A stretch of DNA of 62,371 bases, filler included, from Kipferlia bialata (Eukaryota), in NCBI GenBank assembly GCA_003568945.1. It is 3 parts of 3 records of this genome, joined end to end, with 100 filler letters (N's around TTAATTAATTAA, not from the genome) between each part and the next. Parts side by side here need not be neighbours in the genome. Positions count along the whole stretch, not along the records: positions 41,674 to 62,371 come from BDIP01000359.1; 2 more parts are not named here. One strand, 5' to 3'. Positions 1 to 62,371 of the stretch are shown in pieces. The notes under the pieces are model-generated. The model was given only the letters and a program-made list of their open reading frames with translations. It was not told where the DNA came from and did not search any database. A program made the position numbers and the translations under genes. How positions within the stretch are numbered: position 1 is the first letter of the stretch; each line of letters begins with the position of its first letter.

Positions 1-47
1 TATATTCCCTTCTTCCACCCCCCCCCCCCCCCCCCCCCCCAACCCAG

Positions 48-13570: not shown

Positions 13571-13746
13571 TACACCCAATGAACTTATTACGCCCATACA
13601 CCTCTATACACTACAGTACATGTATAATGTTTACAAATGTATACATTCAGAATCAATACAATAATTGTTCTCAGGGGGGGGGGGGGGGGGGGGGGGGGGG
13701 CATTTTAATGACTCATCGTTGTCAGTGACAACGTCACCCAGCTCAC

Positions 13747-28046: not shown

Positions 28047-28082
<36 letters not shown>

Positions 28083-32497: not shown

Positions 32498-32785
32498 ATA
32501 TAAGTGAACACACTAGATTTGTCACTCATGTTTCTTCAAGAGGAGTGTTTCGTTCCAGCTTGCGTTCCAGCAAACCACTTTGCAAGGGTGTATCATACAT
32601 TCGAGTACATGAGGTCTTGTGGGTACTCTGTTCGGCACACAGTAGATTGATACCCTCCCGAATCAACAGCCAGTGGAGGCTACCGTTGATGGCCTCCAAC
32701 TATACTGTCCACAGTGATAAAGGTTGGTACTACCATCTGGTAGGCTCTATTCAGTCGAGTTCACATTCCAAATCGATACTTTGAT

Positions 32786-33896: not shown

Positions 33897-34080
33897 TCAG
33901 TGACAACATGTCACATTGTGACTAAGTCCTATAATAGCCTGTGAGAACTCGTTAGAGTAATAATTCTCCATTTTCAGCCGTCCCTTTTGGTGAATACACC
34001 AATATACATACTAAGAGAGTATATAACCATTCTAGGAAGAATTGACAATCCATTCGGACATCAATGTGAGCAAGGCCATC

Positions 34081-36319
34081 TCATACTCTCTGGGCCACAG
34101 TCTCCTCTGCCACCAGTGCCTCCCACTCTGCCTTGCCCTCCTTGGCCCACCAGGCATCCCAGGGAGGCATCTGGTCTGGGTTAGGGTCTAACTTAGAGTG
34201 TGACAGAGATACAGCCTAGAGTACGACACACAGACAGGGAATGCGGTACAAGTACATATTGGGCAATGATGCTTCTCATTTTCAGCAAAGATTCAACGTA
34301 AGAGAGAATGGCAAACCTGCGTCCAACATGCGCCTGGGATGGTTGATCGTATCCTTGTAAGTACTGGGTCAGGGATTGGTGGGGTGTAACGATACTATTT
34401 GGTAACAGAGAGATCCATATCACTGGATACAAGAGCAGTTCGAAGAGCACATAGAATATAGGTGTGATAGACACAGTTACCCACCTGATCATGGGATAGC
34501 CGGGCACTATCCCCTCTAGGAACCTGATAAGACGGTGGCAGTACTCGCGGTACTCTCTCAGTCTGCGGCACATGGCCAGGCTCTGCGGAGTCAGGGGGTG
34601 CACATGCACATATACACATATACATCGTGACATGTGGAATAGTCTCAAGTTGGGGGTCCGGTTACCATTCGCTATGTAGAGAGAACAAAGACACAAAGAG
34701 AGTAGTCAGCACCACACATGAGTGACATCAAACAGTAATTAGGTGGACACCAATGGTAACACCATAGAGGCCCCTACCTCGAGTATTCTCTTGTGGTCAT
34801 CTTCCACTATATAGTGCTCTGTGGCATAGAGAGCCTCTGCATGTGTGATGGACTGGCGTCAAAGGAAAGGGTACATCATTGTATCAGAGTGGACTCATTA
34901 TGCAACAGACCCATGGGGTGACTTGAATACACACATGGCAGGGAGGATTTGCAGTCTCACCTTCTTGCACACCCTGATGATATCGGTGTACTCCCGCCTC
35001 TCTGTAAGGCGCCCCATCTCTTGCTTGTACTCCTGCTCATCAGAATATTCCCATGTGAATCATCTATGAAAGAACCATCTGTATATGTATCAGGCTACAA
35101 ATATGTGGGTTGCGGAATATATGCATCAACGACTGTCTGATTTGTAAGACAGCAGAGGTTTATCATACGGGTAGAGACACTGTGTGCACTGCTTGCCTCA
35201 CCTGGTATGTGACTGATGCTGCATCGTGTGCCATCTGACCCCACTGGACATGAGGGAGTATACAGAGACAAGTACATAGCGTGAAAGACATGCTGAGCAA
35301 GTCAGGGGTGACACCTATTCATTGCATATGCGACATGGGTATATATATATGTGTGTATGTGTATATGTATGGACCTTGTCCAGCCTGCACAGGGGACATT
35401 GGCACTGGAAGCCATAGCGACTCAGCTTCTCCTAGGAGTGAGAATACAGTCAATCGCAGTACACACGGCATCTAGCATGATGAATAGTACCCATTGTGAC
35501 CCCCTAAGCTGGTCACTTACAGAGGTCTGAAAACACCCTCCCTACTAGGCCGAGTATGCACATGTGATACCTGCCTCTCCGCTCTGTTTGCCTGAATTCC
35601 GCAGTATGACACAAACAGCTGCTCTCCTACTGATATGTCCTGGGAGGCGTGGAAGTACTGTTTATGTCAGTACCAAATGAGAGACAGTTCCAGTCACAGC
35701 GATACTCTGTAACAAACGAGTGGGAGAGGGAGAATACTGCCATACCATAACCCCCTCAGTCGAGTTCCAGTACCGAGTGACATTGGGCATACAGCTAGAG
35801 TGGGAGACAAATAGTGAGACAGAGAGAACAGACAGATATACTACTTGGGGAACACATTGAAAACAGCTTCTGAGGAGTCTGCATAACCTCAACTATTCTG
35901 TTGGAGAGAGAGAGAGAGAGAGTACGTATGTTTGAACCTGACATATATATGGAAAGAACACATATATATATCTAAGTACATATATATAGAGAGACAGGGG
36001 GTAAGGGAGACAGAAAGAGTACCTGTGGTTGAACCTGGATGCGATGAGGCACACACACCCTCCGTCTGGCCTGTCACTGTGCTCTTCACAGGCAAAGGAC
36101 TGGTCGTATCAGCGGGTAGAGAGATACTTTGTGGTTCGGATCAGTAGGTAGAGAGACACACAGTATTGGGACACGAAAAAGTACAGGAGTAAAGAGAAGT
36201 ATTCCAAACAGAGAGAGAGAGTGGGTGTGTGTGAACTCACATTGCCAGACAGCATTCCCCCCAGGGTCTTCCTCTCCCCTGGCTTCCGGTCCCTGTCGTG
36301 CAGGGTCTGGAACTGTTGA
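34081..36319 (-). CDS. Multi-exon hypothetical protein (5' end probably missing)
   Basis: Chain of short exons with canonical signals, e.g. SLAMCRRLREYREYCHRLIRFLEGIVPGYPMIR. The last exon QMPPWDAWWAKEGKAEWEALVAEETVAQRV* ends at 34081. Confidence 0.5.
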
Positions 36320-41573: not shown

Positions 41574-41673
41574 NNNNNNNNNNNNNNNNNNNNNNNNNNN
41601 NNNNNNNNNNNNNNNNNTTAATTAATTAANNNNNNNNNNNNNNNNNNNNNNNNNNNNNNNNNNNNNNNNNNNN
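41574..41673. other. Artificial contig linker N44-TTAATTAATTAA-N44
   Basis: Same 100-nt linker as at 20748; 12-mer at 41618-41629. Confidence 0.95.
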
Positions 41674-41691
41674 TGAGTGTCTTACCCCCAG

Positions 41692-42591
41692 GCATGTACG
41701 AGATGAATGATGATGGAGAGTACACCTATGAGGGACTGTACAGTTGGATGCTTCCCTTTAGCGGCAGGTATATCTCTACTCTAGTATTTCTATTACCGGA
41801 CTATCGCTATGCTCTGCAACTCCCTATTCTCTCTCTTCTCGTTCTCCTTCTACCCCCTTATAACGTCAGATCAAGTGCTCTGTGTGTGTCCTTACAGGGT
41901 CATCTGGTGATAGTGGGAGGTGCGGAGATGGATATATGAACACGCATATATGTATGTATGTAAATGTGTGTGTGTGTGATGATCGCTGTAGTAAGTGTTG
42001 ATATGTTTGCATATCTATAGGTGTATGAGAGAACTGACATTTAGGACACGATCAAGTCTGTAACCCTGTGAGGGAATACTCTCTTTCTCTCTTTCTCTCT
42101 CTCTCTCTCTCTTACGCAAGGTCATGACCAAGCCTGTATTCCAGTGCTTGAGCTGTATCTTCAATCACTACAGAGGATATTTATACATATATATGTGTGT
42201 GTGTCTAGTCTAAGAGAGATACTCATCCTAAGGCAATGACCAAGCCTGTAACCCTGTCATGGAGGGTGTGAGTGACTAATAGGAGTCTCTCTCTATCTAT
42301 TCATATCTATTTCTCTCTTATATTAGGTTATGATCAAGCCTGTAACCCTGTCATGGAGGGAGTGAGTGTGTACAACCCAGAGACGGACAAGTGGAGGGTC
42401 GGTGACCCAAGGTATGTACAAACATGTATATGTATACATATATATTTATAGAGTACATATACAGCATACATATCCAGTGTGTATCATAGTCTGATGGACT
42501 GGTCTGTCTTGTTTTTTGTTCTTTCCCTCTCTCTCCCCCTCAATGTAAGTATAGAATATTCCTCAACCCTATCCCCTTGAGTGCTATGATG

Positions 42592-42639
<48 letters not shown>

Positions 42640-44354
42640 ATACCCCAGTCCCCTTGAGTGCTATGATGACACCCACTACACTGTGGTTGATGACACCCTC
42701 TATGTATACCCCACATGGGATACAACAGTTATGAGGTATGGTAGTATGTATATATATAAGTATATATACATGTATTATATGTATATTTATATATATATAT
42801 ATACACCACATGGGATACAACAGACATGAGGTATGGTACACTGTATATATGAGTATATATACACTGTATACCATAGATATGTACACATATATACTGGGTG
42901 TATGCCAAACATGGGATATAACAGACATGAGGTAAGAGACGAGAGAGAGGTTCATATATAGTATTTTACTAGTGTATACAAACATATACCCCACATAGGA
43001 CATAACGGACAGGTAGGGAAGCATTGTGTAGATATAGACACATATATAGGGGAAGCTTTATGTAGATATGAACATATATACATATGTACTTATATGCCCG
43101 ACATGGGTCACAACGGACAAGATGTGAGTCAGTATACACGAGAGTTTGCCGAAAAGGACATGGCTTCAGTATATGGATAAATTCTCTCTAACCTCAGTGT
43201 CTACACCCTTAAGTTGGGCCAGGGTGTTGATCAGGATGACATGGGCACTACGTATATATATGTACTCTGCTACTCTACATCTATATTTAATATGAGTCTG
43301 ATACCAGTGTGTACAAGCTCACTCTTGGTCAAGGTCTTGATAAGGATGACATGGGGACTGATGGGGGTGGTCTATATGGAGACAAGTGGGAGACAGTGGG
43401 GTTGGCTAGTCTGCCATGTGCAATTAGAGAGGAGTTACTCGGCGTGACTCAGGTTAGTATGTATATATACGTGTGTGTGTGTGTCTCAGATTGGTATGTA
43501 TATAGTAGTATATACGATTAGTATATAGATGGATTTATATAGTATACTACTCGGTATGCGCTCAGGTAAGTGTGATAGTAATGATATACTACAGTTAAGT
43601 ATACTGTATCCGTATAATGCTGGTGAATGCTAGATCATCTAAGTATGTATACTTGTTGTATATTGGTTATGATTCCCCATAATACTCACTCCAGTCAGTT
43701 GGCAGGCAGGTTCTCTCCTATGATGGGAATCTGACAGTGCGGGATAAGGTATGTATCTGGTAGAGAATATTTTGTAATACATTCACTCTATGATAATGCG
43801 AGTGTAACCACTATTCAGGCAACGTGATGCTGTCAATATATAGTCTACCATTGTCTAATCAACAGGTCAGTGGAGAGACGACAGTCTACCAGGGACCCGA
43901 GAGAACCCAAGATGTGAGTGGCGAAATGTGTTTTCATACTGTGTAATTAGTGGCTTCTCACTCTTGTTTCTCATTAGTTGTTATGCATACTCAAATTGTC
44001 CTCCAATCACTTCAATGATTATTCTCATATTATACTCTAATTGTCCCCTAATTATGCTCTGTGTATGGTCTGATTATAGGATTATGCTCGATATTCACTC
44101 TGATAATAGGATGAACACACACCCCTGTACGTTCCGATAGCGAGTGGAGAGTCAGGTACAACATATAGTTGTAATTAATGTATAGTATTGAGATTTAGGT
44201 AGGGTCGTGTATGGATATGGTCGGTGTATGGTACTGTGCTAACTCTTCAGGTATGCTATTCAGAGAGAGAGAGGACGAGGGTGAGAGTAGCGATGGTCCT
44301 CTGCTTGTGGCCAGAGCCCTGCCAGAGATGCTGTACCCACAGAGTGTAGAGTGA
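41692..44354 (+). CDS. Divergent kelch-like protein, 3' part (multi-exon)
   Basis: Exons include GHLVIVGG, GYDQACNPVMEGVSVYNPETDKWRVGDP and TVVDDTLYV. The final exon ...LVARALPEMLYPQSVE ends in TGA at 44352-44354. Confidence 0.5.
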
Positions 44355-44577
44355 TTCATAGTATGAATCATACCGTTTAATGGAGTTGATGGACAGTGTA
44401 TCAAAAGTCAGGGGTATTAAGAAAGGGCCCTGCCTGAGATGCTGTATCCACAGAGTGTAGAGTGATTCAAAGTATGAATCATACCGTTTAAAGGAGTTGA
44501 TGGACAGTGTATCAAAAGTCAGGGGTATTAAGAAAGGGTCCTGCCTGAGATGCTGTATCCACAGAGTGTAGAGTGAT
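44316..44577 (+). repeat. 111-bp tandem repeat x ~2.4 spanning the stop codon and 3' UTR
   Basis: Units start at 44316, 44427 and 44538 (G(C/T)CCTGCCwGAGATGCTGTAyCCACAGAGTGTAGAGTGAT...). Confidence 0.92.
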
Positions 44578-44739
44578 ACTCATCCTATTATGGAATCACA
44601 ATAGAGAGTTTGTAACAATATTGACTCTGAGATGCTATCACTTTCTGATTTGAGGTATACAAGAAATGTGGGATTTGAGAGTATGCGGACTGCAATTTGC
44701 GGTTGTGTTATGAAATTTACAATGTGAAAATCTCACCCA

Positions 44740-45828
44740 CCACATTGTGGCACTTGCCTTAATAGTGTTAAGTATTTACTGAGTGCCCTCATGACTTTCT
44801 TTGAGTGAAGGAATCCTTGACGTACGCACTAGAGCTGCACAGCCTCTAACGTCAAGTCTCTCTCCGCTGTCTTCATCTGTTGCAGTGGTAACTAGTGATA
44901 CAAGTCTTGAACTTTGTATCACAAACTGCAAATGTGTCAATACTCTCAACTGTGTCCAGTGGACACTGTCCACTCATGTACTGTGTGTCACGCTTGTACT
45001 CTAACTAGTCCGGACAGTTCAGTCCTCGATGCACACACGGGGGCTTAGCACATCTGAGAGCATCTAGTAGAAGATCTACCATGACCATGTCTCTGTTGTC
45101 AGGAGAATCCCAACCTGAGTCAGACTCAGCTGTTCTCAGGCCCTGAGAACAGTGTTGTCAGATTCTGACTCAGAACAGCATAGTGATTTCATCTCAATGA
45201 TATCACACTAGTAGTGTGATCGCTCCTGATCGCTGCGTAGTCTACGCAGCGAATAGTGTGTACTACGTACTGGATAGCCAAGCCAACTTGGCTCACTAAT
45301 ACCATATTGAATATGTTAAATATGCCACTGCCCTGTATTGTTTTGCGGCTGTGAATAATTGTGACTCATAACGCTATAAGGGTTCGTATATTGCATATAC
45401 TATATACTGTTCTTCGAAACTGGTTCAGTTGCTAAACACTAGTTCTTGGTTGCATTCCAGTGACTGGAGTCTGGTTTCCAGACCAAAGGAAGACAGGACG
45501 GCATAGAGTCACTCTATTAGAGTGAGAGAGAGCACTGTTCCGACACCTTTGCACGAATACGAATACATTTCATACACTATATCTAATACATCAGATAACA
45601 CATGAGACATTGATGAGTATCTTGTTGTTGTACCACTAGTGGTAGTCTACCATGGTAACCAGGATGGTTAAGTCAGTCACTTAGGCTTCCCCCACTGGCC
45701 CAGTGGAATTGGGCCCCCAAACGCTGGAGTTACAATGAAACACCATATCACAGGCAAGGGCAGTTCCAGTGGAACTGTTCCACTAAGACAACGGCTGGTT
45801 AAGTTAACCAGGTTAACACAACTTGTGT
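44740..45828. other. Intergenic array of chained short inverted repeats (palindrome-dense tract)
   Basis: About 20 perfect dyads with 5-11 bp arms, mostly with a 1-nt centre. Examples: CTGTTCTCAGG-C-CCTGAGAACAG (45130-45152), TCGCTGCGTAG-T-CTACGCAGCGA (45230-45252), ATCACACTA-G-TAGTGTGAT (45202-45220). Confidence 0.9.
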
Positions 45829-46034
45829 CAAGCTAGCCCAATAATATAATTTGAGTTTGTTCCTATTCTCTGCCTATAGGTTAGTAAATACATCTCGCCG
45901 CGTCTTGCATCTATCTACCACCATTCGAATGATGCCATCTATTGAGTACCAATTTGATACTACTATAGACTGACTAATAGTAACGCAGCATCATTAATAA
46001 ATCGTCACACACTTCACACAATATACGCGGGGAC

Positions 46035-46038
<4 letters not shown>

Positions 46039-46078
<40 letters not shown>
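46039..46078. repeat. (TC)n microsatellite
   Basis: Pure TC run directly downstream of the stop codon of the minus-strand gene. Confidence 0.9.
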
Positions 46079-46081
<3 letters not shown>

Positions 46082-46085
46082 CACC

Positions 46086-46481
46086 CTATGTGCAGTAGAT
46101 GGGCATGTACTCATTGCGGGTGCCAGTCAGTCTCTTCACAGTGCGTCTGGGGGTAAGGATACGATGAGTATATAGATCTACAAATATATATGTAAAAAAA
46201 TAATACCTGTGCCTGGCTCTAAAAATTATCATGTATATTATGGAAATGGTACATATATATACCTGTGCCTGGCTCTTGAGCAGCAGCACCCACAGGCACA
46301 TGACAGGACACCAGTGGCAATGAGGGCAAGGAGGACAAAGATGATCTGATATAAGGGGCTAGAGGGAGACACACAGAGAGATAGAGCCAGTCCTAGTACC
46401 TTCTTGGGAGAGAGAGAGTAAGAGAGAGATAGAGAAGGAGAGCACCTTTCTAGGAGATGGGAAGCCAGGCAGCACAAGAGC

Positions 46482-46537
<56 letters not shown>

Positions 46538-48075
46538 AAGAGATAGAGATAGAGACTTACATTGACTGAGCTGAGTATGGACTAAGAGAGAGCAAGAGAG
46601 AGAGTACCTTCTTTGGGGATGGGTAGCCAGGCAACATAAGAGCTATATATATGTATAGAGAGAGAGAGAGAGAGTAAGAAAGAGAGGGAGAGTACCTTCT
46701 TTGGGGATGGGAACCCAGGCAGCACAAGGGCAGTCTCCATGCCTGGGGGTGACGAATTAGACAGCTAAAAACGAGTATATACTATATACATATGAATATA
46801 GGGGTAAGGGGACACGGCACTTGACTCCTTATCGACGACAAAATTGAGGGAGGATAGTATTTAGAGTGTATTGATAGTAGTACCTGTTGTCTTTCCCACT
46901 GCCTGCACGTCGTATCCCCCATCGACATAGTGGTTCCTGGTCTCCTGTATCTCGTGGCCAAGGTCTCCACCCAGGTGTCTATAGGTGAGAAAGAGTACAG
47001 TAATTATGACAACTATATATATATATATATATATGCGTAAATTGACATATATGATATTGATGGCCAAGGTCTCCACCCAGGTGTCTATAGGTGAGGGGAT
47101 GGAATGTGTGTGACAATGCTCTATTGTATGCAAATAAACATGGAGTGCTAATTGCTACACATTTCGTACCTGTAGTGGAACAGGTCTGATAGGGTAGAGG
47201 GGTCAACTAATAATGTATACGTGTGTGTGTGAGAGAGTGAGAGTGTAGACACACAATCCTGTAATACTGTATTATGTATATATGTCTATATACCTGTGGC
47301 GGAACAGGTCTGACAGGGTGGAGGGGTCAACACCCATCTTGGCAATGGACTGGGGTGAGACGGGGATATATACATAGAGAGAGAGGGAGAGATAGAGTAT
47401 ATACCTCCTCCTTAGTCATCACTCTGCCAGTCTTCATGTCACTGCTGTAGAACACAGCTAGGGCAGAGTCAATCAGGGGGAACAGACCCGCTCCTGATTG
47501 TGAGCTTCAAGTAAATGAATATACATATATATACATATATATATATATATACATATAGGGCAGAGTCAATCAGGGGGAAGAGACCGGCGCCTGAGAGTGA
47601 GTATCAGTAAATGTATGTATAGCAACATACCAATAGTCCAATATATATATATATATATACTCATGGTTACAGTTGCATCATTACCTAGTGGCATGTACTC
47701 TGCAATGATGGCCTCTACCCACTTGTCACCCTGGGGTAAATAAGGGTCTAGATATATATATATATATATAGTGAGATATATATGTAAAAAGAGCCTTCGG
47801 TTGACTGCAGGTTTAAGGTGGAGAGAGAGAGGGGGGGGGGGGGGATGCAATAGTACCTGCAGGTTTGATGGGCTTCGCGTTGTAAAAGCAGAGATAGTAT
47901 ATAGTGTGGGTAACAAGGAACACACTCAGAGTTTGTTGACAATCAGTACACATCGATATGGCAGTTAGAATATGTAAAGGGAGACGGTACATGTATACAC
48001 TGGCTGGCACCTGTCCTTCACAGCCACCTTGGCCAGAATGGCAGTGACTAGAGCCAGGGCAATGACAAGGCGCAT
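46086..48075 (-). CDS. Type I membrane protein: signal peptide, single TM, Cys cluster, YxxPhi tail
   Basis: Begins MRLVIALALVTAILAK (ATG 48075). The last exons give IIFVLLALIATGVLSCACGCCCSRARHR / RTVKRLTGTRNEYMPIYCT-TAG. The exon structure near 47860-48010 is uncertain. Confidence 0.65.
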
Positions 48076-48551
48076 ATATGGTGATCGAAGAGAGATGAGT
48101 GGAGTAGGGTCTGTCACGCGAGGAGTATATTGAAACGATAAGGGGGCAGTGTTAGTTATGAAGATGTGGTTCACCGCGGTTCAACGTCCAATGAATTGTC
48201 TCTCTCTCTCTCAGTACCCTGTGGTGAGGCATATAGATAGACTCACCTTCTTCCAAGGCAGCTGCGGCAATACATAACCATCCAGCAACTACCGACAAGC
48301 CCCCAAAGATACCGACCCCACTCGAGATAGAGCCAGTACAGTAGAAGACCAAATATCTATTTGGTCAAACCAATACAACAACATAATACACAAAACTAAT
48401 ACAGTGCCAATCTTGAGGTGGAATTGGCATCTCTCTATCAATCACTCCCGCTCCAATATGTTGGGTAGACGCGAGTAATGCCTATTGTCTCTCTCCCTTC
48501 ATTCGTGTCACCCTGACCCGTGTCACTCATCTGTGGCCTGACAGTACCAAA

Positions 48552-50902
48552 CTAGCAGGTCTTGGAGAAGTCCTGGGGTGAGGGTGGGGAAGAGCAACAC
48601 CTTATATATATATAAACTATGTGTCTCTATATATCAGGGTCTCTCTCTCACTTACTCTCTATCCATATACATACCTGATGAGTGACCAGTGTGACATCTG
48701 CCGCTGCTGCCATGGCTAGATCTGCCATATATCATACATATACTATATATACATATACTATACATATATATATATATACTGTACCTGATGAGTAACCAGT
48801 GTGACATCAGCAGCTGCTGCTGCCATGGCTAGATCAGCCAAATAATATCATACACACATACATGTACTCTATATACTATATCTCCCATATATACTAATAC
48901 ATATATATATACATATATACCTGATGTGTCACTAATGTGACATCAGCTGCTGCTGCTGCCATTGCTAGATCAGCCACAGTGCAGTTCATACGGGAGGGGG
49001 AGGGGGTGGCCCTGGGAGTATGAGAAGATAGAACATACATCAGTGTAGTATAAGGGGTGTATACATAATAGAGAGGGAGAGAGAGATAGCAAGAGTGCAG
49101 TTCATACGGGAGGGGGAGGGGGTGGCCCTGGGGGTGAGGCATCTGAAATACATGTCTATAGTCTATGGAGTATACACAATAGAGGGAGAGAGAGATATAT
49201 AGTAAGAGGGTCAGTTCATACGGGAGGGGGAGGGGGTGGCCCTGGGGGTGAGGCGTCTAGAATACATCAGTGTAGTATAAGGGGTATACACAATAGAGAG
49301 AGAGAGAGAGATATAGTAAGAGTGCAGTTCATACGAGAGGGGGTGGCCCTGGGGGTGAGGTGTATTACATACATCACTGTACACTACATATGGAGATGTA
49401 CATACCTGATAGAGACTGTGGGCTGATCTGTGCTCAGGGGCACTCCCTCCATGCTGTCGGTGCCCCTGGACACCTCAGACATTCTGGGGGGTTGGATATG
49501 GTGTAATAGACTATAAGAGTATATGTGAGTATGTATAAACAAGATGCTGTCGGTGCCCCTGGACACCTCAGACATTCTGGGGGGTTGGATATGGAGTAAT
49601 AGACTATAAGTATATATATGACATCCTGGGGGTTGAATTAGCCACAGTGACTGGTGCTATATTGCATAGTTCACATGAATAGTGTATATACAATAGTACT
49701 TCCATCCGCATATCCATACCTCTCTGCCACCGTGACCGGTGCTGTGTGTGTGTATGCCATCAATGCATTATATCTATATATATATATATATATGCATACA
49801 TCACTTGATACCTCTCTGCCACAGTGACTGGTGCTGTGTGCTGGGCATGTCATCAATGCATTATGTATATACACTATATATATATATACTATCCACCATA
49901 CCTCTCTGCCACTGTGACTGGTGCTGTGTGTCTGTTGTGCCTGGCCTCCATACATTATATATATACTATGTATATATATATATATACATACATACCTCTC
50001 TGCCACCGTGACTGGTGCTGTATGGGGTATGTGCCTGGCCTCACCGGATATAGGTAGAGACAGACGGGCAGGGGCTGGGGGTTAGACTATTCAAGGAATC
50101 ACACATACAGTAGGCGCACCATATATACCCACAGTTTACCTCCGGTCCACATCCAATGTCAGTGTAATGGAGCATATACAGTGTATATAGAAACTACACA
50201 CCTTCTGGATCCGGTCCACACCCCATGTCTATGTATAGAGTCTTGTATATATATACATACGCACACACACATATATATACATATATATATCACACATCAC
50301 ACACCTTCTGGATCCGGTCCACACCCCATGTCTGTACCGGTGGATGTGGAGGTGCCTACTGGGGGTCAGTGTGATAGAGAATATTGGATCATCTGTAACA
50401 ACTAGCGACTAGAAACCGAACACAATCCACACCTGACGACGGCCTAGTGGTGATTGGCTCCATGACACTCCCCCTCTCTCTCTCTCCCCTACTGCCACTG
50501 AATGAATATAGGTCATTCCACTCCCGAGAGGTGCTACGGTGCGCAGAGGCTGGGGTCAAAGATACATTTACATCCTCATAAACACGATATACAAGATCTA
50601 AGACAGAGAAAGAGAGTGCATCAGATGCTGCGGTGCGCAGAGGCTGGGATCAGGGGAAAAGGATCGTGATGCATACACATATATACTATAGTGATACGTG
50701 GAAAATGAAATAGAGAGATTATTACAAGTGGAGGTGCTACGGTGCGCAGAGGCTGGGGGGTGAGGATACGGTCAATGACTATACTCTACAATATATCATA
50801 AGTATCATCCCCCTCCCTACCTGCCTCCCTCATCCTGTGCCTGTCACTGTCTCTGACTGTGCCCCCTGCCATGACACGGTCAATCTCAGCCCTGATAGTG
50901 TT

Positions 50903-50939
<37 letters not shown>

Positions 50940-51930
50940 TCCATTAAAATAGTCACGGTCAATCTCAGCCCTGGGGTGAGAGAGAGAGAGAGAAAGAGAC
51001 TGGATACGTAACAGAGAGAGTGTATATATCTGACTGTGTCATGACTCGGTCAATCTCGGCCCTAGGAGGGTGAGACACATACAAATACAAGCATAATTCC
51101 CATAGCGACGCCATGAGGAAGTATCAATGCACACCTTAGCACATTGGTGAGCCCTAGCTCCCTCTGTCCCCCCTCCAATCTGTGGGATGCAATACCTGAG
51201 GGGGTGGCACCCAGACCAACCTTGAGGCCCATGCCTAAGGGGTTAGATGGTTATATACACAGTGTATTACACAATAGTAACTACTCTATATACACCTATG
51301 CCCACCTTGAGGCCCATGCCTGGGGGGTTAGATGGTGTATATATACGGTTACGAATACAGGGGGAAAGACCTGATATATACTCATTCCCACCTGGCTGTC
51401 CGTCAATACCACCCAGCATATCGACAGTATAGATACACTGACTGTATGTATACATATATACACACAATACTATACACACATACCTGGCTGTCCGGCTGTC
51501 GTTGCATGTATAGTATATGATTAATGACTGTATATATACATATATACACACCACCCTATACTGATTCCTACCTGGCTGTCCGTCTATGCCCCCCAGCATG
51601 TCGTTGTAGGCATCCAGCTTGGCACCCTGGGGGTGAGGGTGTGTATAGATACACATATGCATATATATACCCTACCTGAATGGGTGCTGTCCACTGGTTG
51701 TGTCTCATGTGCTCCTCTGTGAAGCCGGCACCCTTCATCTCGTACCAGCCCTAGGATGAGTGCAATGTATATATGGAAACTCTCTTTGTATGTATGTTTA
51801 TATGTATATAATAATATATACATATGCAAATACACTCATACCTGCACTGGCCTCCTAGTCCTGTCTCTCTCAATGTCTCTCATGCATGTCTGCAGGTGGT
51901 TCTCATCCATCCTGGGGTTACTTCAATATC

Positions 51931-51970
<40 letters not shown>

Positions 51971-54012
51971 ATATATATGTTATCATCCATCCTGGGGGGT
52001 TATATAGAGGTGTATACAAATANNNNNNTATATGTTATCATCCATCCTGGGGGGTTATATAGAGGTGTATACAAATACATGATACTATTATATACATGTA
52101 TATACATATGTGAATATATACATGTCTGCAGGTGGTTCTCATCCATTCTGGGGGGTTAGGGATTCAAGTATACAATGATAATACACATATATATACACCT
52201 CAACTGACTCGGCGTTCTGGGACCACTTGCAACTATCACATAGAATGTGTGTCCGCTGTGTACAACATATAATATATACTATATATAATAACACATATGC
52301 GCATGAATATATATACCTGAGTTGGCTGAGGATGCTTGTTGTGTTGGCCAGCATCTTGCCAGAGGCACCGTCCTTGAGGTTGACCTGGGGGGTCAGTGTC
52401 AGTATAAGTATCAGGGAAAGTGTCAATAACAAAACACTCTTATATATGAGGACATAGGCTGTCTGTATATATATAACACATATTTATACACGTGTATCAA
52501 TACCTCCAGACTAGGCACCCCAGGTGCAGTTGCATTCATGCCAGAGGGACGGCGGCTGGGGGGTGAGAGGGGGAAATACAAATAGCATCCTTAAAGAACT
52601 ATGCCCATCGTGTATTACATATACTGTATACATACACATATGTATATATCACACCCACCTTGCTAGTGTCTCCAACAGGTCTCTATGCCTCTGCACAGGG
52701 ACTGAGGTGACAGGACGCTGGGGGGTGGCTGGGGGGTTAGAGAGGAACATCATCTATAGTAGGACGCATAATATCCAGATCCATCCATACATCCCCTTGT
52801 CAGTCTCCTTGTCCCCTCTCTCTCTCCATCTCTCTCTCTCTTCACATATACTACACTACTACTATGCATACCTCCCCCCTTGTCTGCCTCCTTGTCCTCT
52901 GTCTGTCTACTACGCATGGCACCCCTAGATGGTGAGATATGTAGGTACACATACACACACACACATAGGTGAGATAAACAACAAATACATATATATACAC
53001 CATTGATGTACATATACATTCATATTTATACATATACTACGCATGGCACCCCTGGGAGGTGAGATATGCAAACACATTCAGATAACACCACTATGGTATC
53101 AATAATCACTGGTTATACACATAGAGAAATGGGTGGCGCTGGGGGAGGGAGGGATGGGGGGTGGGCAGATATGGACACAATACAATACATGTGGTACATC
53201 TATATACACTGATACTACATATCTATATACAACACACCTACTGAGTGACCGTGTGAGTGGGCTGATCCCTGGGCCAGTCGAGTAGTAGCTCCTGGGGGTC
53301 AGTGATGTATGGATGTAGTATATATACACACATACATACCTATATGTACATATGTATACATATATCATACCTGGGTGTCCTCTCCCTTATCCTGCCGGCC
53401 TTGATGGGGGCCCTGTTGGTGCGGCTGGGGTAAGAAGACACGCATATATATATATATATATATGTATAGGGGTATATATGAAATCTCACTCTGTGTCTGA
53501 TACTACCTGATGGGTTGGTGCGGCTGGGGAAAGGTACAGAAGTACAGACATAAACTCAAGGTACATATGTATACAATCTCATACATATATATATATATAT
53601 ATATGTATGTATTAACATCCACCACTTGATGTGACTTGTCCGGGGTCCCATCGTGTCCCTACACATACTCCATGCATATATATGTATATATTATTAGACT
53701 AATAAACACACTCACTTTATGTGCACTGTCCTGGGTCCCATCGTGTCTCTCACTCCTCTGACCACAGGCTTTCCCCTGATTAAGGGGATCTCCCTGGGGG
53801 CCTGGGCTAGGGCCTAGGATGGTGAGATGATCATATCGAAAAGAAATCTATCATGAATATAACATGTAATATATACTTGTAGATAGACACAAAGGGTTGT
53901 AACATACCGTATATAATATATACGGTATATACTATATATGTAATATACAGTATATACCTTAGCGATCTCTGCCTTTCTGGCCTTGTGGGGGTCAGGGGGG
54001 GCACGTCTTCGT
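48552..54012 (-). CDS. Multi-exon hypothetical protein (5' end missing), introns crowded with partial exon copies
   Basis: Traceable exons include VNLKDGASGKMLANTTSILSQLR, GAKLDAYNDMLGGIDGQP, HTAPVTVAER, MSEVSRGTDSMEGVPLSTDQPTVSIR, ATPSPSRMNCTVADLAMAAAAADVTLVTHQ and DFSKTC*. Confidence 0.55.
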
Positions 54013-54214
54013 CTGGGGTGAGAGGGTAATAGAGAGAGAGAGAGAGAGAGAGAGAGTAAGAGATACAAATAGGAGGGGGGGGGGGGGGGGGGGGGTTACG
54101 GGGGGGGGGGGGGTTTCTCCCCCCCCCCCCCCCCCCCCCCCTCCATACTGAAATATACATCACCGTTTCCACACTTGTCTTCTGCCACTCATATACCCTA
54201 TATGTCCCTTCATC

Positions 54215-57200
54215 ATGATGCTTCGGTGCTCACAGAGTATATGTGCTGTGCACTTCCTTACCAGTTACTCTCCATTACCCTAACCACAGTGACTAGGGAG
54301 CACTATATCCCTGTCCCCGGTGTCCCTTCCACTGCCCCCTCCGTCTCTAGACAGCCCCCCTCCACGGTCACCCTGTTTGGAGAGGTGTCCAACATTCCCA
54401 TTGCCAGTAAGGGTGTAGGTGTAGCGGGAGGTGCAGCCTCCCAGGCCCAACAGCTAGTCCACATGGCCCAGACTGATATGGCCATGTCTGATGTGAGTAT
54501 GGCCAGGGTGGTGGAGGCATCAACATCCCTCTCTCCCCCATCGGTCGCTGCATCTAACGCAGTGTCCCCAGCTGACTCTGTGTCCACCAAACACCCAACC
54601 CCGCCCTCCCAGGTGTCTGATAGTGGTGTGTCAACCACCCTGAACCTACACACTGTGTCACAGGGAGAGACTGCAGCAGTGACAGGGACAGAGACTAAGG
54701 TGAAGGTGAAGGGGAGAGGGAGAGGGAGACCCAGGAAGGCCAAGGGGGCTGGTGCTGAGTCTGCCCCCAAGCCCCGAGGCAGGCCCAGGGGGACACCCTC
54801 CCACACCACAATGTCGCTCAACAAGAGACTGGTGGTGCTGGAGGAGCAGGTGAGTATGAATATAGGTATATATTTATAGGTATATATTTGTGTAGTACTA
54901 TGTATATGTAAATGGTAATGTAGTAAGAGACTGGTGGTGCTGGAGGAGCAGGTGAGGAGGAGTGGTATATATGTATGTTCGTGTATAGTAATAGTGTGTT
55001 ATGTTTCTCTCACCCCCAGACCACCACCGCTGCCCCTCTCTCCATGGTGACTGAACTGACACGGAGGGTACAGCAGCTTGAGGCACAGGTGGGTAGTGGC
55101 CGTGTGCATCATTATGTCTAAGTATATATGCACTTATCTATTGTTCTAATGCCCCCTCACCCCAGTTCCAGTCCCTGAGTCAGACCGGTGCCACACAGAG
55201 ACAGGGGGGCATGGCATCTACCCCTGCTTCCATGGCCACAGCACCTATAGCCCCTGTGGCCCCACCTGTCCCTGTCCAGATACCCACTGGCAATGGACAC
55301 ACAAGACCAGCAGGTGGGGATGGAGGAGTGTAGTGTGGTAATAGCTAATGTCTAAGTTGGTCACACTTTTGGATGTCGGGCGTATGTATATTCCATGTGC
55401 ATTCCATCCATTGATACAGTATACTAACCCTGCCTCTGACCCCAGGTACCACCATGTCCTATGGACCATCGGAAGGTATGTGTGCCATTGCTATTCTGGA
55501 TGTTATCATATATGATGTATATGGTGTATATGGTGTATATGGTGTATATGATGTATATGCTGTATTCTTGGCAATTATACCTTGTGCATAGTGTGACTCC
55601 TTCATGTACTCAATCCCCTGCCCACCCCTTAGGCTCAGCTGCATTCACCAGAACCAAGGTGGAGATGACTCACCCGGTGGTCAGGTGGTTTCCTATGCAT
55701 ATATCCGAATACTCCGAGTGCCTTTGTTACTGTTGCAGTAGGGGTTCTCACAGATAACCAACTCACTCTCAGGCTGAACGGATCTGTCGCCCCCGTTCCT
55801 ACCCCGGCGCCACAAATGCAGTACCAAGGTATACATGAGACATGATTATATATATCTGAATCTATATGAGTATGAATTCATCTTCTACCACACCATGTCC
55901 CGCCAACCCCAGTACGTCATGGGGCCTGGACTGCCCAGGAGGCACAGAGGGCCACGGTGCTGCTGAAGTAAGGATACTAGTAAGGATATACTAGTATATG
56001 AAGCTGCAGGAGTCGTCTCAGTTCATCAGTCGCTACAGTGATTGTTGAGGGTTTCTCTCCCCCTTGGGTTTCTCTGACTACCCTGTCGTCCATCATGATA
56101 CTCTCTATACCCTGTTGTATGTATTGATCTAGTCCCTCACACACAAGTCAGAGGAAGGAGGAGATTGCAGCCTTGAAGAGAGAGCTCCAGACATACAGGG
56201 GACAGGGTGCACAAGGCGGAATGGTACGTCATTACACCTTGGAATTTGTGCCTCCCCCTCCCACTAGTCTCATCCTCACTCTCAGGCCCCTGACGCTATG
56301 CTGAGGGAGCAGCAGAGACAGGTGGGTGTGAGTCTGATAGTTATGGCACTCTATGTTTGGCAATGTCTGTCTACCTTCCCTCCCCTCACCCCTCAGATGA
56401 CCAAGGCCCTGAGGGACAAGGACAGGGAGAGAGAGAGGATGGTCAGGTCAGCTGTTGCTGCAGCAGAGAAGGAGGTGGGGCGTCTTCTATTCTCATACTG
56501 TATTCAGTTTCAATTTGTTTTGCTTACTGTCTCTTTCTACATGTGTGATATTGTTTCTCTCTATAGTGTCAATTGACTGTGTGGTCTGAATATAACATAT
56601 CCACTCTAACGTCCCAGGCTGCTGTGGTGATTGAGAGTGGCGAGGCTGAGATTGCCCGGCTCAAGAACGAGGTGCTGGAGGAGGTGTGTGCCTTGGTTCC
56701 ATCTTGAAATTTGTGTCATATATATATATATATATGCTTAGTCTGACTCCTGTCCTAAACCCCCCAGGCCAAGTACGCATGGCGCAGAGAGGCCGACCTG
56801 ACCATCACCCAGGGCACCCTGCGTGCATTGTGTGCCACCCTGGTACCCTCAGATACTAAGGGGGCAGAGGAGGCACCCCCACCCACTGGGCCTGTGCAGG
56901 GTCCATCTGCCAAGAGGCCACCCTCCGTGGAGCATGTACCTGGGATGCCCGTGCCCTCCCTCAGTGCCGTGCCCAGTAACCATTTGGCCAGTCTCATCGA
57001 GGGCATGGAGGAGAGGGCAGAGTGGGGTATGGGGTGTATGTATATATGTATACTATGTATTGTCCACACATATATATGTATATATATATTGAATGAGGGC
57101 ATGGAGGAGAGGGCAGAATGGGGTGAGGACTCTGTTGTATTTATATCGATACACGTACATGTAAGTTTGGAATGGCTATGCCGAATCTTTCTCTCACCCT

Positions 57201-59511
57201 CAGCTGCTGCTGACAAGTCTGCATACATCATCGCTGACCTGTATCACCTCCCAACGGGGGACCTGTACTTCCCATCCAAGACAATTGAGGTGAGAGGCAT
57301 AGTTCTACTTACTGTAGCACGTAATGTGAACACTATATCCCCCTTACCCCAGGCCACCCTGAAGTGCTCTGCCCAGTTGGTGTCCTCGTGTCTATCTGAG
57401 GCCAGGATCAGACACCTGGATGAAGTGAGGTGGGGGGTGCTACTACACAACACGTGTCTTCATGGTATCTGACAGTTTCCTTGTAATCCCGTCCCACCGT
57501 GTATAAGTAAGCCTCTCACCCCAGTGCCCCTGGCGTGACTGCCTTTGTACACAGGATGCTGCCTGCCCTGAGTGCAGAGGCCTCACAGTACATAGACACA
57601 TACTTTGGGGGTGCCCGGAAGGATGACATACTAGGCCACCAGAGGGTCATGCTCAGACAGAGGATGCGGCAGATCACACCGACAGAGGTGGGGAGAGGCT
57701 CTGTTTCCCCTATATGCCTATGTATATGCAGCGACTCTATACCTCTCTCACCCCTCAGGCCTATGAGATGGAGCCTGACCTCTCCGACCTCTACCTCCAC
57801 TACACTGGGCCTCTCAAGCCGGTGGTGCAGGTACGTGTATATGTGTTTCTGCCCACACTAGTTGGTAATCTACTGTTGCTTCCTGTTCCCCTCACCCCCA
57901 GTACAAGTACAAGCCTGCTGTGCGTGACCCTACTGTCAAGAGTGCCCGGACCAGTATGAGGGGGGACGTGGCGAGGTGGGGGTTGTGTGGTATATGAGTC
58001 AAAGGGACATCACCCTATGATGCTATTGTTACATCTGTTATGTCAATGATACTGTACTGACCTACAGAGAGGGCTACCCCTCCGTTGATGACTATGTGAT
58101 TGAGGGTCTAGACGAGGAGGAACTGGCCGAGAGGGCAGAGGAGATACACGGGTGGGGGGAGTGCTGCAGCTACCTCGCGTTCTGATCCACAATACTCTTG
58201 TGATATTTCGCCATTTGATTTCTATATATATACGATATATACCCCACTGTGCATATCACCTACTCCAGGTCTGTCTACTCCCACGAGGAGGGACAGCGGA
58301 CACCCAAGTCCCCGGCCACACCAACCGACCCATCACAGAGGTTCGGCATGTAGCATCTTATGTCAATGAGTATCAGTTTCTATTACTGCTGAACTTACAA
58401 CCACTCACCCTCAGGAAGGGCATCCCTACAGCTGCAGGGGAGGGCGGATGGATGCACAGGGTATGTCAGACATATACTTGTGTGTAGTGTCCCAATCCAT
58501 ATGGGTTTGACTTTGAATTGGCATCCGGGATCCGTAGTAATTCCCTGTTAAGACAGTCGATCCTACTGACACTACACCTCCTTCGTATACCTCGCTTTCT
58601 CACCTCTCAGGATGTGGGCAAGTATGCAGGAACCAAGAGCACCTCAGGTACCTACATTTATTTGTTGCAGTGAAGAGTTTTATGATGATGAAATCTCTGC
58701 TATTGTACCATCACCATTATTTCTCTTCACCTATATTCACCCAACAGGCTCCACTAGGAGACAAAAGGGTACCGCTAGGACAGGTGGGTGCAACCCTTCC
58801 ATTATCATCACACCTTAACTCTCACTGTTCTCTCTTTCGGAACCTCATTCCACTGACCCTTCAGCTCGCAAGAGAACTCCAAAGAAGACCACACCCACTC
58901 GTGGCAGACGACCAGTCGACGCAGAGACGGTATGTTCTCATGTTCCAATTATGATCTGTATTATGGTTGTTGCATATACCCTCACCCCCAGGCCTCCAAG
59001 AAGCAGGGCGCTAGAGAGCACTGGCTGGGGCTACTAGCCATCCTGCGTAAGGAGGTTGATGCCATAGGTGCGTGTTCTCCTACTGACTCTCTCTATGTGA
59101 ATCCATCTATTAGTGTATTATGCCTCCTGCCAACCCCAGACCCCCGTCTTGACGACATTGCCCAGATTGTGCCCCCTGGCTACCCTGCACCCCTATTGGG
59201 CCCTTTAAGAGAGGGGTACACAGCTGCTACGCTAAGATGGAATGGAGGCAGATGGAGGGTATGTGCATGTACTCACACGGTCATAAGTAGCATCACACAT
59301 AGACATGCAGATACCACCCTCACCCCAGAGCAAGTTGTCTGTGTATAGGCTAAGGGGTGCCCTGTTGGAGTGGGTTCTCAAGTCTCTGCTGGGTGTGCCC
59401 TTGCCGGTGTGGGAGGCACCCAGTAAGGCAGGCACCCTGTCACAGGTGGTCAGTGTAGACATGGACAGTATGGAGGCAGAGGGGACACTGGACCAGGGGG
59501 AAGGGTCGTGA
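54215..59511 (+). CDS. AT-hook and coiled-coil nuclear protein (multi-exon)
   Basis: A probable first exon 54215-54236 joins in phase to an exon from 54290. AT-hook cores are RGRPRK (54721-54738) and PRGRPRG (54772-54792). Coiled-coil exons follow (EEIAALKRELQ, EAEIARLKNEVLEE), and the last exon ends DQGEGS-TGA at 59511. Confidence 0.6.
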
Positions 59512-59658
59512 TGGGTCGTAAATAGACACCCCAATGTAGATTCATATCCAGCGTCGACAATGAATTGTAATGGAATGTCGACACGCATAATCTCAGCTGG
59601 TTCCATAAGATCTATTGGGGTTCTCTCTCTACTCTACAACTGATTACACTACACACGG

Positions 59659-62307
59659 CTACCGATCCAGCTCCCCCAGGTCCCTAAGCTTCTTCTTCAG
59701 CTGGTCGACCTGGCATGAGACTACTGTCATATTATATATACCGATTGTCTTACACATCGAGCACACCCACCTGCTGCTGTGACTCTTCCAGCTTCTTCTG
59801 GGTGAACCTCCTCTTCAGAATGTCCTGTCTACGCCGGACAGGGGCCTGGTGGTCAGAGGGCGAGTACCACAATAGCTACAGGTACCATACATTCAAGCAT
59901 CAATAAGGAGTGAGAGGTTGGATCTCAAATATCCTAAACACTGCCCACCTCCTCCAGCCTCCTGAGCTCATCGTTGTACTGCAGGATACCCCTGTTGGCA
60001 CTGGGGTTAAGAGGGGAAAGAGTGGTGAGGGAACAACACGGAGTAATTATACAATAGGAGTGCAACAGAGCAGATCAAAAACACACCTGGCCAGGTCCGA
60101 CTCCAGTCTCGCCACCATCTGTGCCCTGGGACCAGACCCCAGACGAGAGGCACCAGCACCAGACGGGCCTGGGGGGTCAGTATAATCATTATTCTATAAT
60201 CAGGATATTGACATAGAGATATCACTACATATATCACTACTATACTCACTCTGGTCCCCTATGATGCCTAGCCCCCCCTTGGACTCCCTGCCTGCATTCC
60301 CCCTGGACCCAGGCACGTGCTGCCTCTCCTGCTCCCACTCGGCATCGGCAGCAGACACCCTGGGGTCAGGAAGTGGAGGGAGATATACATATGAGTGATA
60401 TGAAACCCACCTAGCGAGGGCCTCTGCCTGTGCACTGCGGGTGGTCCTGGTGGAGGGGGGTCTGGGTCAGAGGGGGTGGACACATACACAACACTCACAA
60501 CGACTGTCTATATGATCACTATACATCACCCATGGTCCCTATCTATACCCTGTACCTATAGTCATTGGGGTCTGATGCACCCACTGCAAAGGGGGCTGGC
60601 TTGCGTCTGGCCTGGGCAGCCTCCATACGGGCCTGGGGGTAAGTGGGGGATATACACACGATATAGTACCATACCATAGTCAGGTCCATATCATACGCAT
60701 ATACCTTCTCCTCATTCTCCTTGGCCTGCCTCATTCTCTCCAGCTGGGCGTTGCGGTCTGGGGGTGAGGGTATCGGAAGAGGGGATATGTGGTCGACATC
60801 CATCTATACTACAAAGGACGGTTCAAGTCCCCATGACTTGTGTCAACCAGTATACCCACCTTGCCTAGCCTGCTCATATGGGTCTAGGGGCTCAGCCACA
60901 GCAGAGGCAGCGGCAGGGGCCTGACGTGAGTAAGGCAGCCAGAGCAAAACTCAATGCCAGTACAACACTTGATGTGTCACTGCCCACTCATACCTGGTAG
61001 GAAGGGGGAGCTGCCTCTGCTGGGCCTGGTCCACCCATGCCACCCATACCTGCCATCTTGGCGTTGATGGCCTAGGGGGTGAGGAGCATGGTGGGGTATG
61101 TGGGTAGGGTAATTTATGTATAAAATCCATACGGCATATATACATCACTCTCTGCCACGTCAACCCATGTATCATACCTCAATCTGTGCATCCAGGGCAG
61201 CCTGTCTCTCAGACTGGGCTGTCCTAGACACCTGGTGGGTAAGTGAGGGGGTAGAGGGCAGGAATGCGTGGGGGAGATGTTGCGATGAGTTCATGTATAT
61301 ATACATCTGTCATACCGGCTGTGGCTTGGGTGGGGCATGCTTCATCATGGCAGCCTTCCTGGCCTCCATGAACTCCTGGGGTAAGGGAAGGGTATAAATA
61401 CATACATATACAGACTAGAACATACATATACAGACTAGAACATATATACATATCCCACCTCGAATGACATTGGCCTGTCCACGCCGGGCTCCCCAGCATC
61501 CCCCGTGGCAGGCTCTGCCCTAGGGGGAGAGGCCTGTCTCTCTCTCTCTCTGTCCCTAGGTGGGGTTGGAGACCTAGGGGTGTCTCTGCGGTACGACTGG
61601 GAGGTGACTCTCTCCCTCTCCCTCTCCTTCTCCAGGTCTCTCTCTCTGGCCTTCTCCCTGTCGACCTCTCTCCTCCTCTCTCTCTCCCTCGCATTCTCCT
61701 CTGGGGGTCAGACAAAACGCAACAGAAGACAGGTAAGTAGAATTGCCTATACATACATACCCTCCTCTCTCTCCTTGCGGCGCTGGAGCTCCCTCTCCCT
61801 CTCTCGCTGGAGGTCCTCGAGTCTCTCTCTCTCCCGCTGCTTCTCTCTCTCCCTCTCTCTCTCCCTGTCATTCCCTCTGTCCCTCTCATCAGCACCTCCA
61901 TAGTTGAAGGACATGTCGTGGTTGCCCCTAGGCCCCCCTCTCCTTACAGGCTCAGGGGGTGCATACCTACCAGAGTCTCTCTCTCTGTCTCCACCCCGAC
62001 CCCTACTGTCTCTGTCTCTGTCTCTGACCCCACTGCCACTCCCTCCGTAGTTGAACCCCACCCCCCCACTCTCTGCATTGTGGTTCTGGTGGGTGTGTCT
62101 GTCGGAGGGTCTGTCTCTGTCCCTGCTCATACCGGGGGAGTCAGCGCCACCTGGGCGTGAGGGGGTGGGGGGAGGACGGCATGGAGTTGTGTATCCACAA
62201 TATACATGACCAACCTATGATATTACATCCTTGTACCCACCTGTCCGCCTAAGCGTGTCCTTGAGTTCTCTGATCTGGGTCTCAGCTGACTGCAGCTTCA
62301 TGTTCAG
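59659..62307 (-). CDS. RD/RE-rich coiled-coil protein, 3' part (5' end outside window)
   Basis: Exons LNMKLQSAETQIRELKDTLRRT / ...RDRDR...ERERE... / ...LESDLAR / ANRGILQYNDELRRLEE / APVRRRQDILKRRFTQKKLEESQQQ / VDQLKKKLRDLGELDR-TAG. Confidence 0.6.
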
Positions 62308-62371
62308 CTGGGGGTGAGGGGTGGAGCACGAGTAGGGGGGGGGGGGGGGGACTGAACCGGTATTGAAAACA

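Follow-up and report, generated by a model that had tools for sequence, protein, structure and literature searches.

Among the closest described relatives of the repeats reported here is the 37-bp minisatellite in intron 7 of the human F7 gene, the first unit of which spans the exon–intron boundary, as in the donor-side arrays of Kipferlia bialata, and the downstream copies of which are silent pseudo-donors, with the most upstream donor being used, as is likewise the case here (PMC1557585; this source and those cited below are drawn on in part). The F7 pseudo-sites are, however, identical and belong to one locus, whereas the Kipferlia units, here called echoes, are about 95 nt long, are found in many genes both before and after exons, and carry silent differences (PMC1557585). 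Head-to-tail units spanning the boundary are present in Kipferlia as well, and extra splice sites that stay silent were found for array 1 of the locus described below and for the arrays of the next gene (gene B) in RNA contigs, which lack rare forms. In the potato RdRp duplication, which follows the Rogers intron-gain model, the intron end and the exon start were duplicated together and the branch site and AG were inherited, as here, and a cryptic donor makes the copy an exon and yields a new intron (PMC4974935). In contrast to potato, the Kipferlia copies are skipped, no intron was gained, and the divergence is of the coding type (PMC4974935); both copies were not found together in mRNA via a new intron.

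With respect to the origin of such copies, failed SDSA combined with PolQ gives tandem duplications of approximately 100 bp to 10 kb in C. elegans helq-1 (PMC8654963), and aborted SDSA in Drosophila finishes in alternative end joining (PMC8951532). The product is a direct tandem copy of the over-synthesised stretch, and K. bialata has PolQ without Ku (PMC8654963, PMC8516963); however, those duplications are sister-templated with a median of about 1 kb, whereas the Kipferlia units measure 54-138 nt and their template would be a diverged allele (PMC8654963). Crossovers in Schizophyllum commune, with parents diverged by 14%, favour exons (PMC4209137). The likeness to Kipferlia would lie in the recombination of diverged genomes being concentrated in conserved exons, and the difference in the crossovers being in register, with intronic copies unmentioned in the portions of that text covered (PMC4209137). 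Kipferlia itself is intron-rich and has a reduced spliceosome (PMC6679479, PMC5874029); echo arrays are not mentioned in the covered portions of these two texts, and the main text of the K. bialata genome paper (PMC5874029), as far as it was covered, gives 0 matches for “duplicat”, “heterozyg” and “ploid”. In the literature searched, which was largely open-access, no description of arrays like these was found for Kipferlia or for any other organism. The layout of the duplication is known (F7, potato RdRp), and the signature of silent divergence appears to be new and unexplained.

The finding lies on the minus strand of the last part (positions 41,674-62,371; 20,698 nt) of the window, that is, of the whole 62,371-nt, intron-rich stretch of K. 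bialata DNA analysed, which joins three contigs and in which the spacers at 20748-20847 and 41574-41673 consist of N44, a 12-nt all-frame-stop linker and N44. The intervals concerned (48675-50074) are free of Ns, and upon re-reading of the sequence, all copies reported there in an earlier note were found at their positions on the minus strand. The arrays occupy the 3' end of KIPB_002249 (P0001, minus strand), the model of which was assembled manually between 54012 and 48552, with GT for the donors and a branch point plus AG for the acceptors. The 19-exon model was identical to the public protein at 437/437 residues with 0 internal stops, and a 42-residue query over exon 49011-48921 gave a single protein match, K. 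bialata KIPB_002249. The Pfam search with this protein returned no family, and no other homologue was present among 7995 scored candidates of 245-783 aa. The first (exon-side) copies of the arrays are those contained in the public protein. Two further features of this gene are absent from that protein, namely an acceptor-side echo at 53523-53507 (minus) that has a GT of its own 17 nt further on and recalls the intron gain in potato, and, at 53138-53121 (minus), a candidate microexon of 18 nt in frame. The features of the locus are as follows.

48552..54012, minus strand: host gene KIPB_002249; 19 modelled exons, no Pfam family, paralog search blank
49996..50074, minus strand: working exon ending APVTVAE-R,GT; gene model and public protein match
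49900..49948, minus strand: donor-side echo 1 of exon 50074-49996; length 47 nt, core with silent changes only, IP replaced by NR upstream
49810..49850, minus strand: donor-side echo 2 of the same exon; silent 29-nt core, out of frame upstream
49718..49756, minus strand: donor-side echo 3 of the same exon; silent core, CCA/CCG
49641..49662, minus strand: donor-side echo 4 of the same exon; truncated, GT lost
49544..49578, minus strand: acceptor-side echo (array 3) of exon 49483-49406; same as the exon, with a nearly identical flank, and the sole copy that looks fresh
49406..49483, minus strand: working exon MSEVSRG...VSI-R; gene model and public protein match
49321..49350, minus strand: farthest acceptor-side echo of exon 49011-48921; two-codon deletion
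49212..49243, minus strand: middle acceptor-side echo of the same exon; 30 nt identical
49094..49129, minus strand: nearest acceptor-side echo of the same exon; 34 nt identical, breakpoint common to the other two
48921..49011, minus strand: working exon ATPSP...VTHQ,GT; the RNA contig carries this version of the exon end
48783..48840, minus strand: donor-side echo 1 of exon 49011-48921; 6 silent and 0 replacement differences
48673..48727, minus strand: donor-side echo 2 of the same exon; 7 silent and 0 replacement differences, one codon absent
48552..48572, minus strand: last exon, DFSKTC-stop; gene model, RNA contig and public protein

These echoes form four arrays with units of about 95 nt, each composed of an exon edge, a splice site and a piece of intron. 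In array 1 (minus strand), the exon end 48974-48921 (ADLAMAAAAADVTLVTHQ,GT) is followed by copies at 48838-48785 and 48725-48675. The earlier note had described these repeats (as 48785-48840 and 48675-48727) as carrying silent variants and one whole-codon indel, which was borne out with 6 and 7 silent nucleotides, respectively: the first copy differs from the exon in 5 of 18 codons (6 nt), including TTA/CTG, and the second in 6 codons (7 nt) with one Ala codon missing, all of these differences being silent. The two copies compared with the exon thus give 13 silent against 0 replacement differences, and compared with each other 4 silent and 0 replacement. Array 2 consists of three copies of the start of the same exon (acceptors 49127, 49241 and 49348), as had been proposed for ~49094-49360; these are the same as the exon, except for a two-codon deletion with TCC/TCT in the farthest one, and because of this near-identity, array 2 says little about silent bias. 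The acceptor copy of array 3 at 49576, with 33 identical exon nucleotides, had been overlooked.

In array 4, HTAPVTVAE plus AG,GT occurs at 49996, 49902, 49812 and 49720, and the differences within this core are silent only. Both variant sets given previously (ACG/ACA/ACT and CCA/CCG) are present, and a third, CAT/CAC, had escaped attention. The silent-only pattern holds for the last 29 nt, with decay further upstream: the copy at 49902 reaches 18 nt further upstream, with Ile-Pro replaced by Asn-Arg, and those at 49812 and 49720 are out of frame upstream of the core. In a fifth copy (49662-49641), the donor is gone. The proposal that even copy-versus-copy differences are all silent is therefore correct for the array 1 copies and the 29-nt cores of array 4, and fails in the upstream parts of array 4 (Asn-Arg at 49902, frame lost at 49812 and 49720). 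Taken over these 10 echoes, 17/24 unique differences are at third codon positions (P 2e-4), and 14/20 changed codons are silent. The copies within each array have a common far breakpoint and common spacers, which indicates that each array arose from one founding event; their junctions are novel sequence common to the copies, and microhomology was not evident at the junctions of the 10 echoes inspected by eye, these junctions being eroded.

The copies had also been said to lack an evident in-phase acceptor. This is true for array 1, where the lone branch-point AG, 48828, is in phase 1 (2 or 0 being needed), whereas array 4 has bare in-phase AGs at 49923, 49833 and 49741, and also at 49931/49940, none with a branch-point motif. 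So, no copy in arrays 1 and 4 combines an in-phase acceptor, a branch point and a donor as a cassette exon would, and ordinary alternative splicing is inadequate as an explanation of the constraint, in agreement with the earlier note. GTATGA is present inside the array 2 copies and AG,GC inside the copy at 49902, with no use seen; neither an AG,GT proto-splice site nor a cryptic donor is present inside the array 1 copies. Recursive splicing at the AG,GT ends of echoes was considered and rejected by reasoning, as it would leave the third-position bias unexplained.

The echoes were then counted in this window only, with 58 exons of 8 genes modelled; outside genes A and B, the exons were chosen near visible repeats, and the echo rate is therefore not unbiased. 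Self-BLAST of the window gave 59 near-tandem pairs, none of which, at the threshold used, were in 1-15173, 25924-35906 or 57125-62371; the density is very uneven, with dense arrays in 42000-54000. A codon-blind local aligner found 54 echoes flanking 30/58 modelled exons, all of them being counted, including two on either side of an N gap (51979-52048) that may be one. A 55-nt duplicate at 51971-52077, flanking a 6-N gap, is probably a gap-overlap artefact doubling one echo. Cognate intron flanks contained a copy in 35/116 cases against 9/892 non-cognate pairs. Downstream copies consist of the exon end and donor and upstream copies of the acceptor and exon start, an arrangement that matches tandem duplication spanning a junction. 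For the 35 nearest copies, the period ranges over 54-138 nt with a median of 96, and spacers are never <37 nt. Frameshifted, stop-bearing and site-less echoes are present, which means that echoes can die, and 12/54 are identical to their own exon. Silent divergence is lower in the nearest than in the farther copies (pS 0.20 vs 0.32), with 50754 vs 50645 as an exception, so that a polarity with the youngest copy nearest to the exon holds as a tendency only. Long-range repeats were absent from the window (0 pairs at E<=1e-4), which leaves no paralog donor within it.

Across the window, the unique differences fall at codon positions 1/2/3 in numbers of 25/32/85, and 81/142 are silent against 37-42 expected, with a maximum of 57 in 3000 shuffles. 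These shuffles were context-matched (base change and neighbours kept), and context-dependent mutation as the source of the silent bias is thereby ruled out. The pN/pS ratio is 0.25 (exon bootstrap 0.17-0.35) at an overall pS of 0.24. A copy decaying beside a silently changing exon is expected to give a pN/pS of at least 0.5, and simulated copy-then-decay processed by the same detector gave 0.58-0.68, with 0/480 runs at or below 0.25. The silent excess over both shuffles and simulated decay bears out the claim that the copies diverged under coding constraint. At the same time, a harsher count, in which every change in an altered codon was taken as a replacement and 50 junction-touching echoes were used, gave 0.37 (interval 0.22-0.64), with 14% of bootstraps reaching 0.5. 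The echoes of gene C are replacement-rich (24 silent, 29 replacement), a BLOSUM test showed no significant excess of conservative amino-acid changes over random (P 0.15), and pN shows no steady rise window-wide with distance from the splice site (0.05, 0.05, 0.10, 0.03).

These figures bear directly on plain sister-templated tandem duplication followed by neutral decay, in which conversion or pop-out in cis would add indirect selection and the silent excess would partly be a detection or counting bias. The 12/54 echoes identical to the exon fit this account, the harsher count overlaps 0.5, and a tandem repeat of the same size class, away from modelled exons, exists at 44316-44577. However, the simulation with the same detector never reached the observed ratio (0/480), and by an algebraic argument, heritable conversion or pop-out is unable to bring pN/pS below 0.5, because the selecting event also homogenises or removes the copy; the 13 silent vs 0 replacement differences of array 1 and the re-worded but intact branch points described below are left unexplained as well. 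Plain duplication is considered improbable and is already disfavoured. The repeat at 44316-44577 is a 111-nt unit present 2.4 times with 96% matches, located between genes and away from modelled splice junctions, and it represents a young tandem duplication in the same size class.

The branch motif and AG, signals that played no part in the echo search, were kept in 20/26 echo acceptors vs 22/26 real acceptors and 75/410 background intronic AGs (echoes included), whereas retention in about 13 would be expected at 10% decay (P 0.004) and in about 10 at 15%. Positions -14..-3 were identical in only 1/26 echo acceptors. GT was kept in 23/24 echo donors, GT being included in the query. Only 1/50 flanks was near-identical (fresh-looking), 40/50 scored no better than unrelated introns, and flank similarity was uncorrelated with pS or pN; together with the pS of 0.24, this differs from the near-identity of a minisatellite. 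The flank pattern fits copies that were born diverged or refreshed. Silent bias, kept splice signals and diverged flanks, taken together, suggest that the echoes diverged as working junctions and coding edges.

Two runs from one sample contain 44500-54400, with 0.94 (X1) and 0.25 (X2) of the sampled words. X1 was provisionally taken as DNA and may be the source data of this window, and X2, with no listed run being recorded as RNA, was taken as RNA, since its contig is spliced. Contig placement covered 45900-48730 (gene B); contigs drop rare forms, and the filter omits some records. The X1 contigs 46091-46404, 46960-47090 and 47066-47508 traverse echo junctions with 0 other letters, at a depth of 376-408 at the junctions against 421-452 in unique DNA, and a 319-nt X1 contig would fit 47529-47847 by its offsets. 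No allelic letters were listed in the X1 or X2 contigs on 45900-48730. X2 contig 9 follows six gene B exons with 0 other letters, and skips the echoes in the introns, its loose end leading on to the modelled exon that comes next. X2 contig 10 extends to 48575; beyond this point its loose end is identical to 48924-48953, part of the first copy of array 1, and comparison by eye sets this copy apart from copies 2 and 3 by several letters. Where RNA was compared, the first donor or last acceptor was the site used. Thus, where tested, the echoes are in cis, single-copy and absent from the dominant mRNA, rare forms dropping out of contigs; for 48785-50074, location in cis and skipping are deduced from the word share, from the loose end at 48575 and from what the neighbouring gene shows.

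These contigs make it very unlikely that the arrays are an assembly artefact in which alleles or strains of a mixed culture were set in tandem. One echo pair does flank an N gap (51979-52048), probably through gap overlap, and X1 may be the source data of the window, but the X1 contigs cross echo junctions with 0 other letters at a depth (301-452) like that of unique DNA, X1 holds 0.94 of the sampled words of 44500-54400, and the junctions are novel sequence common within arrays, with no Ns in the finding. Unsupported junctions, gaps and half depth, as expected for haplotigs, were not found in gene B. The earlier note had regarded separate haplotypes as the refuting case; as an assembly story this does not hold, since the gene B DNA contigs (45900-48730) place the echoes in cis with the exons at single-copy depth with no second allele, and as history it is likely, the variants having probably arisen in other haplotypes before they were moved into cis.

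The same RNA contigs yielded several observations on gene B. X2 contig 10 leaves donor 48011, in the signal-peptide exon of this gene, into 738 nt absent from the compared stretch, and in X2 contig 9, exon 47730-47685 is preceded by about 890 nt; 16 nt taken as a probe from the RNA contig loose end (47730-48011, minus) matched nothing in the window. For the approximately 1.6 kb of mRNA missing at 47730-48011, the likely causes are a split gene or an erroneous join in the G/(GA) run around 47821-47846. Without any splicing, one RNA contig spans 48011-48575, from the last exon of KIPB_002249 through intergenic DNA into the first exon of gene B, which may represent overlapping UTRs or read-through, a single transcript being only a candidate.

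Observation therefore stands as follows: the echoes are real, they are under coding-type constraint beyond simple decay, and the main transcript is free of them where tested. Coding constraint on both diverging copies implies that an echo either came from another working allele or was used without being inherited as an exon; of these, origin from another working allele is favoured. Under non-heritable use, a repeat-guided jump during transcription or RNA processing would join the 5' half of an exon to a copy at a low level, the copies would be under weak coding and splicing selection, and silent sites and flanks would drift. Such use accounts for the silent bias, the kept GT, AG and branch points, the old common breakpoints and the decay of far parts, as well as for the farthest array 1 copy, still at 7 silent and 0 replacement differences; rare forms drop out of contigs, and the bare in-phase AGs of array 4 could yield 22-nt microexons. 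It fits the sequence pattern as well as origin from another allele does, but without RNA support: echo letters are absent from the RNA contigs compared, and the joining of the exon 5' half to a downstream copy implied by the earlier note found no support in the RNA contigs or the public protein, both of which carry the first copies. Frameshifted, stop-bearing and site-less echoes occur, no branch motif precedes the in-phase AGs of array 4, and we know of no mechanism for low-level echo use. We regard it as distinctly unlikely. Slightly more doubtful is its specific form, a non-spliceosomal repeat-guided jump in a small share of transcripts that would keep thousands of interchangeable exon edges under purifying selection; if true, it would be a kind of RNA maturation undescribed in eukaryotes.

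The preferred reading, to which we assign a probability of roughly 55%, is that the echoes, tandem duplicates of exon edges that splicing removes, started out as working splice junctions on other, strongly diverged alleles and were moved into cis by out-of-register recombination. All three steps envisaged for this process are inferred. First, a break in a fragile (TA/GA-rich) intron would lead to strand invasion into the exon of a diverged homologue; synthesis would overshoot into the neighbouring exon, annealing would fail, and polymerase-theta end joining would leave a tandem copy. Second, unequal exchange or conversion would pair an echo with the working exon of the other haplotype, because exons would be the only well-matched stretches between lineages, with the outcome being a longer array with one common old breakpoint, a refreshed splice-proximal part and a decaying far part. 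Third, the donors would be alleles that differ by about 0.2-0.5 at silent sites and are brought together in rare mating or hybrid cells, in an organism that otherwise looks homozygous. Lopsided Dmc1/Pol-theta repair and unequal exchange would have captured and refreshed the echoes, which would now be without function.

The genes of this pathway (PolQ and a recombinase, without Ku) are present in K. bialata according to a literature table covered in part, which lists Spo11, four Dmc1 entries, Msh2 and PolQ for this species, with Ku and DNA-PKcs absent from metamonads and Rad51A from fornicates (PMC8516963). Sex is unobserved in metamonads, meiotic genes are retained, and Carpediemonas looks haploid, according to the covered parts of the same source (PMC8516963). 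Mismatched triplets are stabilised by Dmc1 (PMC6719624), and few species exceed a diversity of 0.1 (PMC9187340), both as given in portions of these texts. No donor allele was seen: the contigs on 45900-48730 contain no second allele, and searches for other strains were blank. Of the pattern matches in the metagenome scans, 92 with the KIPB_002249 protein as query and 46 with a gene of the window that lacks introns, 0 were confirmed in either case, and protein searches for another strain returned K. bialata records only. These blank outcomes are uninformative on diversity. Against the preferred reading stand the required silent divergence (up to 0.5 uncorrected, with three-state sites and near-saturated introns), which exceeds the 14% cross, along with the harsher pN/pS count, the gene C replacements, the absence of a significant conservative bias, the absence of a steady rise in pN and junctions at which microhomology is not evident.

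A related possibility keeps the same repair route without outcrossing, the donors being diverged homologues within one lineage (an old hybrid, a polyploid or a long-asexual diploid) or duplicate genes, with later loss of heterozygosity. Homologues of this kind would explain very large silent divergence under coding constraint, and the second copy of gene C, with its identical protein, could be a separately assembled homologue. On the other hand, gene B has silent-diverged echoes, yet no second allele appears in its DNA or RNA contigs, no paralog of KIPB_002249 was found, and three states at silent sites (ACG/ACA/ACT, GTG/GTT/GTC) need three or more donors, so that donors within one lineage appear unlikely. 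Gene C (41690-43750, plus strand) encodes a Kelch-repeat protein, and in its echo at 43196-43249, 7 codons are changed silently and 4 residues are replaced. A second record with an identical protein (P0002 vs P0003, 227/227), the two loci being listed as GIQ86393.1 and GIQ81305.1, lies on a 6197-nt contig and is a redundant contig, a recent duplicate or a separately assembled allele.

If origin from other working alleles is correct, the arrays would document hidden sex among strongly dissimilar lineages of a free-living protist, with one genome preserving, next to its exons, sequences from many alleles that are former or foreign. They would provide direct, countable evidence of genetic exchange in metamonads, imply a diversity of record level for a protist of this kind, and show the effect on a genome of Dmc1 and Pol-theta repair without Rad51A and Ku. 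Moreover, echo units, adding about 95 nt each, would account for many long Kipferlia introns, and the arrays offer hundreds of natural tests of how a reduced spliceosome, with intact decoys around, settles on the first donor and on the last acceptor. Additionally, a GC-AG intron with the donor gcatgt is predicted in the model of gene E at 25578/25579 (plus strand).
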